Shown here one piece after another: positions 2 through 60,565 of a stretch of 64,000 nucleotides of DNA. Below the pieces are notes generated by a model. It had not been told where the DNA came from, made no database searches, and was given only the letters and a program-made list of their open reading frames with translations. This stretch comes from Spizellomyces punctatus DAOM BR117. Its lineage: Eukaryota. The translations under genes were made by a program, and so were the position numbers. The DNA lies in assembly GCA_000182565.2 (NCBI GenBank), contig KQ257467.1. One strand, written 5' to 3'. Position 1 is the first letter of the stretch, and every line of letters begins with the position of its first letter.

Positions 2-742
2 CAGTCGCAATTCAATGCGGGAGGCCTCGGTCAGGCACCCCAACCACAAATCAACAGCGCCCTTGCCGGCGTTGTGGCAAATTTACTGACGGGCCATGCT
101 ACCCAACCAGCTGCGGGCGGACTGGATGCTCAGACGTTGTTGAGTTTAGTCGGAGCCCTCCAGCAACAGCAGCAACCTCAGCAGCAGCCGCAGTTGGCTA
201 CGTTAGGTCAGCTCACGCAGGGACTGGGTGCTCAGACTCTTAACCCTGCAAATTCTCTAGCAGCATTAGGATTGGGAGGACTTGCAGGACTGGGACAACC
301 ACAACAACAGGCGGCAGTGCAACAACAACCAAATTTGGCAACAATGCTCTCTTCACTCTTGAGCGCGCAGCAATCGCAAACCCAGGGCCAACAAGCCACA
401 CAGCTGCAGCAGGTACCTCAGTCACAACTTCAACAACGGACGCAACTTGGCGGCTTGCAGAACCCCATGCAAGCATCCATCCAACCACTGGTTTCAAGTG
501 CATTGGCAACTCAGTTTGGGGCGCTATCCGGTTCATCGACCACCGGATCCCTTCCAGCCGCTTTAGCGAATTTGCAGCGAATGGGCGTTACACAGCAACC
601 ACTGGCAAACCCTGCAGTTGGATCTACGGCGCCGACATCTGGGACAGAGTCTGTGGCGGACATATTGAATAGGTTGAAGCAGTTGCAACAATTACATCCG
701 GGGACAAGCAATCCCCAGTCCGGGGCCGCTGGGAGAGGATAG
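2..742 (+). CDS. 3' end of a gene with a Q/L/G-rich low-complexity C-terminus, possibly Nab3-like RNA-binding protein (5' truncated)
   Basis: Frame open from base 2 to TAG at 740-742. PolyQ and LGGL/QQP-rich sequence ends in a helix VADILNRLKQLQQ, which resembles the yeast Nab3 terminal helix (VQSLLDSLAKLQ). Coding status is likely; identity is weak inference. Confidence 0.6.
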   Translation, partial: QSQFNAGGLGQAPQPQINSALAGVVANLLTGHATQPAAGGLDAQTLLSLVGALQQQQQPQQQPQLATLGQLTQGLGAQTLNPANSLAALGLGGLAGLGQPQQQAAVQQQPNLATMLSSLLSAQQSQTQGQQATQLQQVPQSQLQQRTQLGGLQNPMQASIQPLVSSALATQFGALSGSSTTGSLPAALANLQRMGVTQQPLANPAVGSTAPTSGTESVADILNRLKQLQQLHPGTSNPQSGAAGRG

Positions 743-1266
743 GACGGCACGAGTCCGAATTGTGTAATAATTTTGGCATTTGCGAAAATGCTTGTGTAGT
801 TGTAACAAGCAAATAGCAATAAAGGGAACTGCAGCGAAAGATTGCGAACAAGGTTCAATTCTATATTCATTGCTACATGTTGTAATCATTTTCCGCCTGC
901 TGCCAATGGTTTTTCGATATAAATTAAAGATAGAAGATCTCTCTTGATAGCAGAAGCCTTTTGCCATCATTCTATACCAGGAGAAAGAAACTGCAAAACA
1001 CAATGCACAGACTGGACAAACTGGACGTGATTGGCATCGCTAATAAGGCACTTTGTCTTGTTGAATATCCATCCAAGGAAGATGATCGGCGACAGTCCTC
1101 CCGCGCCACAATCCAAGCCGCGCTTTAGTAAGAGTCACGTGCTACCATTTTTTTATTTTTGAAATTTCTGATCTGTTTTTTGTGTTGAAAGTTCAACGGG
1201 CTGGTAGTTTTTCTTCCGTTGCATCCCATACCGCTTTTGAGCACCTTCTTCCTTTAACTTTTGACA

Positions 1267-2493: not shown

Positions 2494-2775
2494 GGTCGTC
2501 AATGTCAGTTTAAGACCTCGCCTATTCTTTAAGTGTATGTACATTCTGGTTAATGCTCGCGGTAACTCCAGAGGCAAAGGTGGTGTTGGTGGGGGCAGGG
2601 GGGAGAGGTTTTGCTTTTTAGTTTAGAAGGCTTTCGCTTGTATTTTATCTTTTTTTTGCCAACGACTGCATTTTCACAAAACCGTAACTTAGAAACACTC
2701 TTGCGTTCAAAATGATCATTATTTATTGATTTTTGCAGAAACTGAAATGCCAGCATTTATGGATATCCTACGTTG

Positions 2776-3454
2776 TCACTCGTGCTGTGAAACGAAAAAG
2801 TTTGCTCCCTCAGGCTTCAAGTCATACTGGTCTGCAAATTCCTGTACATGCCATCCACCGCGATCCTCTGGTAATTTAAGATGCCTCAACGATTTCGACT
2901 GAGCAAACAGGATAAACACGTAGCGATGCAAATGGGTGCCTTTCGGCGGTGTGGGGGGATGATAGGAAGTGACAACCTTTCCCTTTTTAACGTCACCGTG
3001 CGTGATGTCGGTTACGACCCAATGACGCCAGCATCTCTTGGCGGGATGCTCGCGAGACGGGGCATCTTTTGTGTGATTGAGTGAGTGGAACGATTCATTT
3101 TCAATACTTTTGGCTAGTCAAATTACCAGGATCAGCCAGGACGAGTGTGTAGAGATCATCGGGATTCGGTGGACTGAATGAGACTTTTGGTTCATGTTCA
3201 GCTTCGGAAGGGGATATTTCATTCCCCAGTGATACTTTTCTGTTCTTGTACGAAATGTCCAAGGCGATGGTCGGTGTGAAATCAGATATCACTAACCATG
3301 ACCGATTATGAGTATTTTTGGTGGGCGATTCAATACAAAAGGGGGATGAAAATGATGCTTTTTTACCATCGGGAATTACTTGGCTGTCGACAAGGGCTTT
3401 ATGCACTTCCTTTAGCATGTTTTTGATAATGTCTGGACGGTAGAGCCTTGACAC
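2776..3454 (-). CDS. Phosphatidylethanolamine-binding protein (PEBP/RKIP/Tfs1 family); start uncertain
   Basis: Spliced translation gives VIPD..FTPT..LGNEISP..YTLVLADPDAPSR..WRHWVV..YHPPTPPKGTHLHRYVFILF, the PEBP DPDxP and GxHR signatures. Stop TGA at 2776-2778. Confidence 0.9.
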
Positions 3455-55210: not shown

Positions 55211-56641
55211 ATGGCTACTCGAAGTCGGACCCTTTTATTTCTCCAGTACCGCAATTCCTTTGCTAGAACTGGAACTAGGAGACCAACACGGCCACTTGGT
55301 GTGGATACGTCTGAACGTGCTGGCCTTATTGCCAATGAGGTCGACCAGAGCACAGAAGTGGTGGTGGAGCTCTCCGTATTACCCCCAAAATGGTAAGACA
55401 TTGGAAGTGCAACGCTCTCCTCGGTATATACTTATTTAAATTCACTCTCATATGTGAATGGGAAGGATTGACATTGTTGACGAGGTATAATGCCTTGAGA
55501 GTCGCACGATGCCTTGACAGTTATTGAACAGTTACTATATTGCAGGTCGATGAAGACGTCGACCGTATCAAGGCGCGACGTACGTATATGCGAGAATACA
55601 CTGGCAGATTGTTTGCCACGCCTAACCGGCATCAACTTATTCACAGTAACCGAGTTGGAAGCTCTACATAAGAAACATCTACTACCTGGGTTTGATGATC
55701 GATTAGGAGAGGAGCAATCCATTGAGCGACTTACGACCAATATCACCGATGTGAGTTCAGGATGCGAAGCATCTTTCTAAGATAGCGCATTGGATGGATC
55801 GCTAGACCATTCGTTGTCTTTCACTAATATCGCATTGTTTCCCGGAAGTGCAGATGTTTCGTGAATGCGAGCGGAAAGTGAAACGTATTGCGAATGAGAG
55901 CCAATATGCGCCTGCAACATCGAAACAAAACCAGGTTTTGGCTCGCAACATTCAGACATCTCTTGCAACAAAGATGCAAGACCTCTCCAGTGCGTTCCGA
56001 AAAACTCAATCAAATTACCTGCAAAGTAAGGGTCGGTGCTAAGGATGCTGTCGCAAAATATGATTTACAATATCGTATTGTCACTGTCCAGAACTTCGCG
56101 GTAGGGAAGTTCGCAACAAGGATGCGTTTGCAATGGAGTCGGGACCATCAGACTCCCAAGAAGACGATTTAGATGCGGTATGATCAACCACTGTGACAAG
56201 TGCTGGCCAGTTATACTAATTAGTGTGTTTCTCTGTCACAGGTTTTTACAGATGCGCAACTTCAAATCGTACAGAACAACGAGCGAGCAATCACAGAACG
56301 AGAGAAGGAGATCAACGAGATCGTTAAATCCATGCTTGGGGTGGCGGACATTTTCAGAGAGTTGCACACAATGGTGATTGACCAGGGGACAGTACTTGAT
56401 CGAATAGATTACAACATTGAACAAGTCAATGTTCACATGGAGGACGCACATAAGCAATTGCTGCAGGTTGGTGTTGAACCGGTGTTTATTGCTCACTAGA
56501 ATTTTCTGCTGACGGGCCTGACCTTTCGAAAAGGGAGCAAAGTACCAGGACAGATCAAAAGCAAAGCTTTGCATCATCCTGCTTGGCATAGTCGTATTTT
56601 TATTGTTTTTGATTCTAGTGTTCAAACGACGGAGTACTTAA
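55211..56641 (+). CDS. TLG2: Syntaxin-16/Tlg2 Qa-SNARE
   Basis: N-peptide MATRSRTLLFLQYR, LPPKWVD, LHKKHLLPGFDD, SNARE motif IFRELHTMVIDQGTVLDRIDYNIE, C-terminal TM. Confidence 0.95.
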
Positions 56642-56746
56642 TATTAATCATATGCATACATGTCTGGGGAGATCGTTTTATGATAGCATTGATACCCCTA
56701 CTATCTGCCGTATTCTTGGGACGCCCGCCGCTGTACGCGCATCCCG

Positions 56747-57295
56747 CTATGCGATTTTTGTGAGTAGTTGCTTATATATCTTGTTCATTGGTCGGTTGTT
56801 GGCGAGGTGCTTCGCCACATAATGAGCGCAGACTTGTGCGTCCAAAAGTGGATTTTTGATGACGTTGACTTTCAAATGGATCGGTGAATCCCGGTAAATT
56901 TGTAAGGAAGCAAGGGGGTCCTGTTCCGCGCCCAAAGCTTCCAGAGGAGTTGTCGCATTCCCTTTGAAGATATCTTTGAAGTAATGATTTCCTTTCGCCA
57001 GTTTGTCCACTCGCCGTTCTAATCGTCCAAGTGCCTCCAGTGGGCGGACATTGCGGAAGTCTATGGTGGGGTTTCGCACGCGTGGGTGTGAGCTTGGCTG
57101 GTTGTCACTTTTTGTCTGTTCAAGAACTGTAAGGTTGATCCATATTCCACTCGTCGATGCTCGAATGTGTGGTTCAGAGATGACATTGTGTTGAAATATG
57201 TGCTTCACGTAGTCAGCGAGAAGCTGGTGCCGGACGTTTCCAGGCCAGTTGACAACTCCTCGCAGACGGAGGGCGAGAGGATTGGTACGACCCAT
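56747..57295 (-). CDS. Nuclear-encoded ribosomal protein uS3-like (N-terminal KH-type domain only), probably mitoribosomal; optional upstream ATG at 57427
   Basis: MGRTNPLALRLRG..W resembles the uS3 start MGQKVNPxGLRLG..W; IKNPLLDAQVCAHYVAKHL resembles P-LDAxLVAxxIAxxL. ORF ends before the uS3 C-terminal domain. No introns. Confidence 0.7.
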   Translation of the reverse strand: MGRTNPLALRLRGVVNWPGNVRHQLLADYVKHIFQHNVISEPHIRASTSGIWINLTVLEQTKSDNQPSSHPRVRNPTIDFRNVRPLEALGRLERRVDKLAKGNHYFKDIFKGNATTPLEALGAEQDPLASLQIYRDSPIHLKVNVIKNPLLDAQVCAHYVAKHLANNRPMNKIYKQLLTKIA

Positions 57296-57352
57296 TATGC
57301 AAAATGACTTGGACAAACAGTTCAATCGTGCTCCACTCAGGTCAACTCGGTG

Positions 57353-57366
57353 GTTGACATGGCAAC
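57353..57366. promoter_or_regulatory. RFX X-box-like element between the uS3-like gene and RIX7
   Basis: GTTGACATGGCAAC, one mismatch from the palindrome GTTGCCATGGCAAC. Confidence 0.45.
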
Positions 57367-57517
57367 TAGCTGTATTAGGTAAGCCCGTGGCTTGTTTGAA
57401 GAATCTGGTCAACGAGTTCAGGTTCATGGTGAAGGAGAACTTTGTACATTTTTATCCGAGGCTTTAGTCCATTTCACAAGTGCAGCACTTGTGAGGACGG
57501 GCTGCAGCGTACCTGCC

Positions 57518-60565
<3,048 letters not shown>

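Follow-up and report, generated by a model that had tools for sequence, protein, structure and literature searches.

Most fungi keep one ribosomal protein gene, rps3, in their mitochondrial DNA (mtDNA), and in the chytrids the question arises of where the corresponding protein, mitochondrial uS3 (uS3m), is encoded. The absence of rps3 from chytrid mitochondrial genomes, given for several chytrids in the initial annotation of the DNA analysed here, rests on statements in a review (PMC7194472). A candidate for the missing gene is located in a 64,000-nucleotide stretch (hereafter, the window) of contig KQ257467.1 from the genome assembly of Spizellomyces punctatus DAOM BR117 (GCA_000182565.2). 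A single-exon coding sequence at positions 56747..57295 of the minus strand, recognized as an open reading frame and by its translation, specifies a protein of 182 amino acids (MGRTNPL...LLTKIA) and ends with the stop codon TAG at 56747-56749. The intronless 182-codon frame of the initial annotation is therefore present as described: it is the downstream part of an open frame of 226 codons (56747..57427, minus strand), in which the second in-frame ATG, at 57295, yields the 182-residue form, beginning MGRTNPLALRLRG. This form aligns from end to end with 47 relatives without any break in frame.

The gene is predicted, with high confidence, to encode the uS3m of the chytrid mitoribosome, because the protein possesses the N-terminal part of uS3 and a link to the fungal VAR1 family, is encoded in the nucleus, is conserved across chytrid orders, and is expressed. 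A fuller statement, that this uS3m has lost the beta-sheet half of its C-terminal domain and that no other gene supplies it, is offered tentatively, at a little under an even chance.

The gene is nuclear, consists of a single exon and is transcribed. A location in the nuclear genome rather than in mtDNA is indicated by the G+C content along the window (45-51%), by the spliceosomal intron of a neighbouring gene, by the nature of the neighbours (a SNARE-domain gene and an AAA ATPase), and by a reading frame that the standard code leaves uninterrupted. The initial annotation had called this a nuclear gene for a mitochondrial-type uS3, and both parts of that description hold, the second through profile matches, fold comparisons and VAR1 matches that fall below threshold. 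The nearest named relative, with 98% identity, belongs to Spizellomyces sp. 'palustris', and every named relative is annotated as a hypothetical protein.

Identity of the encoded protein

Searched against the Protein Data Bank (PDB) as a single sequence, the window protein had four matches, three of them uS3 chains with borderline E-values (0.035-0.041). Of 506 candidates in the first homology search, 15 proved to be relatives; the 13 assigned to a named organism are all from Chytridiomycota, and the relatives cover solely the 182-residue part of the query. A profile of these 16 sequences (the window protein and its 15 relatives) matched 54 PDB chains at E<=10, of which 39 were uS3 (best E-value 1.5e-4); hydroxyacyl-CoA dehydrogenases and double-stranded RNA-binding proteins made up the remaining 15 (E>=0.057). 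When 1.84 billion representatives were searched exhaustively by profile, with no limit on length, 57 proteins were returned at E<=0.001. When a profile of 48 near-full-length family members, the window protein among them, was compared with the PDB, all 53 matches at E<=1 were uS3, and none was RbfA or any other KH protein. The best matches were chains of Bacillus subtilis (E-values 1.1e-7 to 1.5e-7), whereas archaeal S3P chains were much weaker (0.016-0.03), which assigns the family to the bacterial or organellar type.

The alignment of this profile to uS3 is collinear in two stretches, positions 2-59 with uS3 residues 1-68 and positions 121-184 with uS3 residues 71-143. Both motifs from which the initial annotation had recognized a uS3, one N-terminal and one at the end of the KH domain, align to the bacterial protein. 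The N-terminal signature (MG.R.NP..R....W; residues 1-20, encoded at 57236..57295 on the minus strand) corresponds to bacterial uS3 residues 1-21 and is well conserved in the 48-sequence alignment (M1 in 42 members, R3 in 43, R10 in 44 and W17 in 42). For the stretch NPLLDAQV..YVAKHL, the aligned element in bacterial uS3 is the helix P-ELDA..A..I...LE. Thus the bacterial proteins (B. subtilis uS3, Escherichia coli RpsC) and the chytrid protein are collinear from the initiator methionine to residue ~140-143 and have in common the signature at the N-terminus, the strand that closes the N-domain and the P-(E/L)LDA helix, but the chytrid protein is without the bacterial residues from ~144 to the end, which form the C-domain sheet. 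Relative to bacteria, the family has two insertions, totalling ~50 extra residues, that lie after the hairpin of the N-domain and before the last strand of this domain, and is without ~10 residues after the N-terminal tryptophan.

A fungal affiliation is indicated by the Pfam family VAR1 (PF05316), which is matched by ten of the 48 members (best E-value 1.2e-7); each of the other families matched is hit by one member. Of ten members scanned singly, five match VAR1, in each case between profile positions 2 and 100 of 195. The best-scoring member, P0071 (32.5 bits), has PF05316 listed in the database's precomputed column. At E<=10, none of the 48 members matches Pfam KH_2 or Ribosomal_S3_C (PF00189), the latter being the C-terminal domain with a four-stranded sheet, and no mitoribosomal chain is found among the PDB matches of either the 16- or the 48-sequence profile. 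By profile comparison, then, the encoded protein is a uS3 of the bacterial/mitochondrial type. It is collinear with bacterial uS3 over the first ~140 residues of the latter, and with the VAR1/Rps3 model of fungal mitochondria over that model's first half.

Predicted structures are compatible with this assignment. The AlphaFold model from 16 sequences has a mean predicted local distance difference test score (pLDDT) of 72.8; that from the 48-sequence alignment reaches 90.3, with a predicted template modelling score (pTM) of 0.77. The top 50 Foldseek rows for both models are chains of ribosome entries or yeast Rps3, many of them already uS3 by profile, with row probabilities of 0.75-0.99 for the 48-sequence model. 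When the first model was examined again, chain C or AC of mammalian mitoribosomes occupied the best five rows (Z 5.8-6.2, 85-90 residues aligned, root-mean-square deviation 3.7-5.6), which align model residues 6/13-160 (13-180 once) to chain residues 76/80-167, where residue 167 is the C-terminus of the chain. Bacterial uS3 comes next (Z ~5), aligning model residues 13-182 to residues 24-142.

The 48-sequence model was also searched by a structural method independent of Foldseek. The S3-type rows include the yeast mitoribosome chain 5mrc_CC (Z 5.1, 113 residues aligned, model 12-182 to chain 100-249), the human mitoribosome chain 9ojm_C (Z 5.0, model 10-147), the Acinetobacter baumannii chain 6v39_c (Z 5.0, 107 aligned, model 19-182 to chain 18-143) and the Neurospora mitoribosome chain 6yw5_CC (Z 4.1, 117 aligned); the yeast and Neurospora CC chains align over model residues 11/12-182. 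Only the titles of the entries are given by the search tool, and chains C, AC and CC are taken here to be uS3m (MRPS24 or Var1) by the usual naming convention. Unrelated rows mostly end at model residue ~144-154 (two at 165, and one RbfA chain at 182), whereas S3-type chains reach the end of the model.

Several results weigh against the identification as uS3. Scanned alone, the window protein matches no Pfam family at E<=10, and all VAR1 matches in the family are under the 33-bit gathering cut-off. With neither model did any Foldseek row reach E<=0.001. The independent structural search was led by a zinc-transporter domain (3byp_A, Z 5.8, 74 residues aligned), and the C-terminal domains of metal transporters and other two-layer alpha/beta domains interleave with the S3 chains at Z 4-6. 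The modelled fold thus agrees with uS3 but would be insufficient to identify it; the profile match (best E-value 1.1e-7) is what substantiates the uS3 reading of the initial annotation.

The same structural rows contain the KH-type assembly factor RbfA (7x9u_A, Z 4.6; 8byv_A, Z 3.7), and half of the ancestral protein is gone, both of which might be expected if the gene encoded a uS3-derived protein with a non-ribosomal role, such as a KH-type assembly factor or an RNA-binding protein acting in mitochondria or elsewhere. This explanation is improbable: every one of the 53 profile matches is uS3 and none is RbfA, the extreme N-terminal uS3 signature, which lies outside the KH fold in uS3, has been kept, and the gene is strongly conserved and expressed. 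Moreover, the mitochondrial genomes of the phylum are reported without rps3, at least in the statements of the review cited above, and uS3m would otherwise be missing.

The C-terminal end of the protein

The initial annotation had placed the stop codon shortly after the KH-end motif, and the frame indeed stops 18 residues past ..AKHL. Residues 137-182 (56750..56887, minus strand) comprise the last N-domain strand and two helices and include the end of the polypeptide; hhalign places them at about residues 97-140 of E. coli uS3, and HMMER aligns this stretch to uS3 71-143. The hhalign comparison with E. coli RpsC, used solely for alignment numbering, is weak (window residues 137-180 to E. coli 97-140 of 233; probability 10.6, E-value 0.0029). 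In the 48-sequence model, the C-terminal elements are a strand at 139-146 and helices at 153-165 and 170-181, all with pLDDT 83-95; the first C-domain helix and the greater part of the second have values of 93-95, and the block mean at 171-180 is 83. The protein therefore retains the N-domain and the equivalents of helices 1 and 2 of the bacterial C-domain, and is missing the beta-sheet half. Accordingly, the claim that only the N-terminal domain is kept needs to be revised: the C-domain sheet is missing throughout the family, but the first two helices of that domain are present.

The second of these helices bears basic residues at conserved positions. Codons K172-K175 occupy 56771..56782 on the minus strand; in E. 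coli uS3, the residues aligned with K172 and K175 are R132 and K135, and R131 is aligned with N171. Of the 48 relatives, 33 have lysine or arginine at position 172 and 37 at position 175. We take R131, R132 and K135 of E. coli uS3 to be residues that line the mRNA entrance and have been implicated in the ribosome's activity as a helicase. The hydrophobic faces of the retained helices are conserved as well (I173, Y174, L177, L178, I181); in bacterial uS3, the counterparts of these faces are packed against the sheet of the C-domain.

The position of the stop codon might be misleading if a 3' exon had been missed, or if the gene were recently truncated or a pseudogene, so that the real protein would be of full length. 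Automated gene models of chytrids can be incomplete: a search for longer or fused forms (8000 scored candidates) found one, the 761-residue Podochytrium protein P0074, which carries WD40 families and is probably a merged gene model, and another relative, P0067, has an unrelated C-terminus. Against an artefact of this kind, which can be regarded as very improbable, stand the relatives and the transcripts alike. In all 48 members, drawn from many orders, the end point is shared, with tails of 0-23 residues past the last residue of the window protein, the longest being low-complexity and basic; the longest of the 57 proteins found at E<=0.001 among the 1.84 billion representatives has 327 residues. 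As far as sequence comparison goes, this shortened form has been conserved across the Chytridiomycota, and the 98% identity to the sister species likewise disfavours an error in one gene model.

Transcription was examined in raw reads of RNA run X9, which bears the same species label; ~6% of the run was sampled and 833 reads were placed. Runs X3, X4 and X8, which consist of contigs of unspecified library type, do not enter into the evidence. First mates are sense, as they cover the plus-strand SNARE-domain gene on the plus strand. On the minus strand, the mean depth is 72.5 at 56794-56847, 92.6 at 56740-56793, 69.6 at 56686-56739 and 82.8 at 56632-56685, so the stop codon is crossed by unspliced reads at a depth of 70-93. 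Coverage drops below 56632, seven molecules terminate at 56593, and thin coverage extends to ~56470. Continuous reads over the stop codon thus define a 3' untranslated region of ~150 nucleotides (56593..56746, minus strand) to the main transcript end. No minus-strand splice joint was found in X9, the sole joint being the plus-strand intron of the SNARE-domain gene, and the dinucleotide GT is absent from the final 48 bases before the stop. Because unspliced reads pass the stop codon and end near 56593, splicing to a downstream C-terminal exon, which the initial annotation had named as the outcome that would overturn it, is excluded for the main transcript.

Loss or division of the C-terminal domain

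To our knowledge, deletion of the C-terminal domain of uS3 has been reported only in animals. The initial annotation compared the gene with animal uS3m; passages of one paper (PMC7326499) describe the C-domain of uS3 as "completely deleted" in the mitoribosome of Holozoa. Animal uS3m (MRPS24) and the chytrid protein are both nuclear-encoded and short, and both consist of the uS3 N-domain without the C-domain sheet. However, the mammalian chain ends at about residue 147-160 of the chytrid model, and the chytrid protein is longer by 22-35 residues, equivalent to one to two helices; with two C-domain helices kept, its truncation is the milder of the two. A special kinship with animal MRPS24 was set aside because the only sequence-level link is to fungal VAR1. 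At E<=10, VAR1 is the one Pfam family matched by more than a single member of the 48, and Pfam includes a model for MRP-S24. The sub-threshold kinship with fungal VAR1 suggests an origin independent of animals.

The fungal uS3m proteins (Var1/Rps3/S5; PF05316) belong to the same family by profile, through the ten matching members. Unlike them, the chytrid protein is encoded in the nucleus instead of mtDNA, corresponds to only the first half of the model, and scores below its cut-off. The yeast mitoribosomal chain runs ~90-150 residues past the aligned part, which ends at residue 249 of 339-396. The chytrid protein thus resembles fungal VAR1/Rps3 most closely by descent and animal uS3m in function.

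The mRNA entrance of the ribosome is formed by uS3, uS4 and uS5. A possible history of the chytrid gene begins with transfer of mitochondrial rps3 to the nucleus in a chytrid ancestor, of which the present gene would be the descendant. Its N-domain would bind the small-subunit head, as it does in other ribosomes, and the two retained C-domain helices, with conserved lysine or arginine where E. coli has R132 and K135, would still line the mRNA entrance. The insertions, ~25 residues each (roughly 59-86 and 102-124), may help to pack these orphan helices into one compact domain, and the outcome would be a remodelling of the mRNA entrance that is animal-like but milder. That the helices are packed within one polypeptide is suggested by the pTM of 0.77 and the high pLDDT of the helices. 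This scenario, in which chytrids lost the beta-sheet half of the uS3 C-domain independently of animals and kept two orphan helices with entrance-lining basic residues, packed by insertions, is favoured, although our confidence in it stays just short of even. Loss is preferred because the single model is compact, because the insertions are a possible replacement for the sheet, and because chytrid mitochondrial genomes have been described without rps3-like genes: a paper on chytrid mitochondrial genomes (PMC6131824) has no occurrence of 'rps3' or 'ribosomal protein'.

Alternatively, as the initial annotation also proposed, uS3m may be split, with a second gene, either nuclear or an unrecognized mitochondrial open reading frame, supplying the sheet half so that the domain is rebuilt in trans. 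There is precedent for such an arrangement: uS3m of Polytomella consists of two nuclear-encoded fragments (PMC9576764), and that of Tetrahymena of three proteins (mS92, mS31 and mitochondrial uS3m), the C-half being a mitochondrial open reading frame that was unrecognized until the structure was solved (PMC7326499). A short N-terminal piece of uS3, such as the chytrids have, is encoded in both apart from the C-half; the C-half is known in Polytomella and Tetrahymena. The chytrid protein breaks off inside the C-domain, after helices whose hydrophobic faces are conserved, which would fit a split. Nevertheless, the model forms one compact unit (pTM 0.77), and no C-half was seen adjoining the gene in the window, the downstream neighbour being the convergent SNARE-domain gene. 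Nothing S3-like was seen by eye on L002, an environmental contig that was the one locus obtained from 38 pattern matches in a metagenome scan with the 16-sequence alignment. Early-diverging fungal mitochondrial genomes, according to the review (PMC7194472), have 14 oxidative phosphorylation genes and two rRNAs, with rps3 limited to some Mucoromycetes. On balance, a split uS3m is a serious possibility, if a doubtful one.

Outright loss, the reading preferred here, has to be set against several points. A sheet partner supplied in trans explains the conserved hydrophobic faces of the helices equally well. The packing role proposed for the insertions is a guess. The known cases outside animals of genes for an N-terminal uS3m piece, in Polytomella and Tetrahymena, are splits. 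Finally, the nearest non-chytrid language-model neighbours are short ciliate ('S3a', 177 residues) and chlorophyte (166 residues) clusters, which serve as leads only.

In that neighbour comparison, the Ciliophora 'S3a' cluster (177-181 residues) and the Chlorophyta cluster (166 residues) score 0.87-0.90. A cluster of short uS3m-like proteins of 118 residues was also noted in Mucoromycota, with VAR1 in 22% of its members. Short nuclear or split pieces of uS3m may be more widespread in fungi than in chytrids alone.

Start codon, genomic setting and implications

The 226-codon frame offers two starts, and the initial annotation had interpreted the 44 codons between them as a possible presequence. 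The upstream in-frame ATG at 57427 does exist, with an in-frame stop nine codons above it. However, the conserved start of the family is at 57295. The column contains methionine in 42 of 48 members, and the six exceptions consist of four fragments, one glutamine and one proline; 45 of the 48 have no residues before it. None of the 15 relatives from the first homology search matches the upstream 44 codons (coverage <=81% of the 226-residue query), and in the environmental relative on L002 the MGRT start is the first in-frame ATG of its open frame. With the methionine column conserved, extensions rare and the L002 protein beginning at MGRT, translation is probably from ATG 57295, and the 44-residue extension is probably not part of the conserved protein. 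The 44 codons (57296..57427, minus strand) are probably a 5' leader and possibly an alternative N-extension.

An out-of-frame ATG at 57449 opens an upstream open reading frame of 24 codons (57375..57449, minus strand) that runs across the in-frame ATG 57427, and this overlap would be unusual for a leader if translation began mainly at 57427. The X9 reads are 3'-biased and coverage is nearly nil above 57063; because of this bias, they are not informative about the transcription start or the choice between the two ATGs. A homolog in Zopfochytrium (P0025) has glutamine at the conserved start and an N-terminal extension of 63 residues. Residues 1-27 of the 182-residue form include four arginines and no acidic residues, and this arginine-rich, acid-free segment could be an uncleaved or short import signal.

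Downstream of the gene and convergent to it is the SNARE-domain gene (56254..56685, plus strand), with a 67-nucleotide GT..AG intron at 56465..56531 supported by 23 RNA reads. A loose end resembling poly(A) is located near 56660, and the 3' untranslated region of the SNARE-domain gene is antisense to, and overlaps, that of the uS3-like gene. Within the overlapping regions, 12 of 62 X9 reads have T for G at 56605 (9 of 31 on one strand and 3 of 31 on the other), which could be due to a strain polymorphism or a mixed culture. Upstream and divergent is an AAA ATPase open reading frame (58067..58783, plus strand; Pfam AAA, E-value 1.7e-34), at a distance of ~770 bp from the uS3-like gene's conserved start. 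A promoter region may be common to the two. No synteny with these SNARE and AAA neighbours was found on L002 (frames at 411..1193 and 2568..3364, both minus strand), where a GATA-type zinc-finger-like open reading frame and other unrelated frames flank the homolog.

Among the titles and abstract openings searched, none was found to describe a nuclear uS3m of chytrids; earlier work on mitochondrial rps3 may cover part of the subject. The gene family is a likely answer to the whereabouts of the rps3 that is missing from chytrid mitochondrial genomes. It would also represent, outside animals, a uS3m without the C-domain sheet, a form that has so far been described mainly for animal mitochondria. 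Whether the sheet half was lost or the gene was split within the domain, either outcome bears on the remodelling of the mRNA entrance and on the transfer of genes for soluble proteins from the mitochondrion to the nucleus. If loss is the true outcome, it would constitute a second remodelling of the mRNA entrance, of intermediate grade, in a lineage with otherwise fungal-type mitochondrial genomes.

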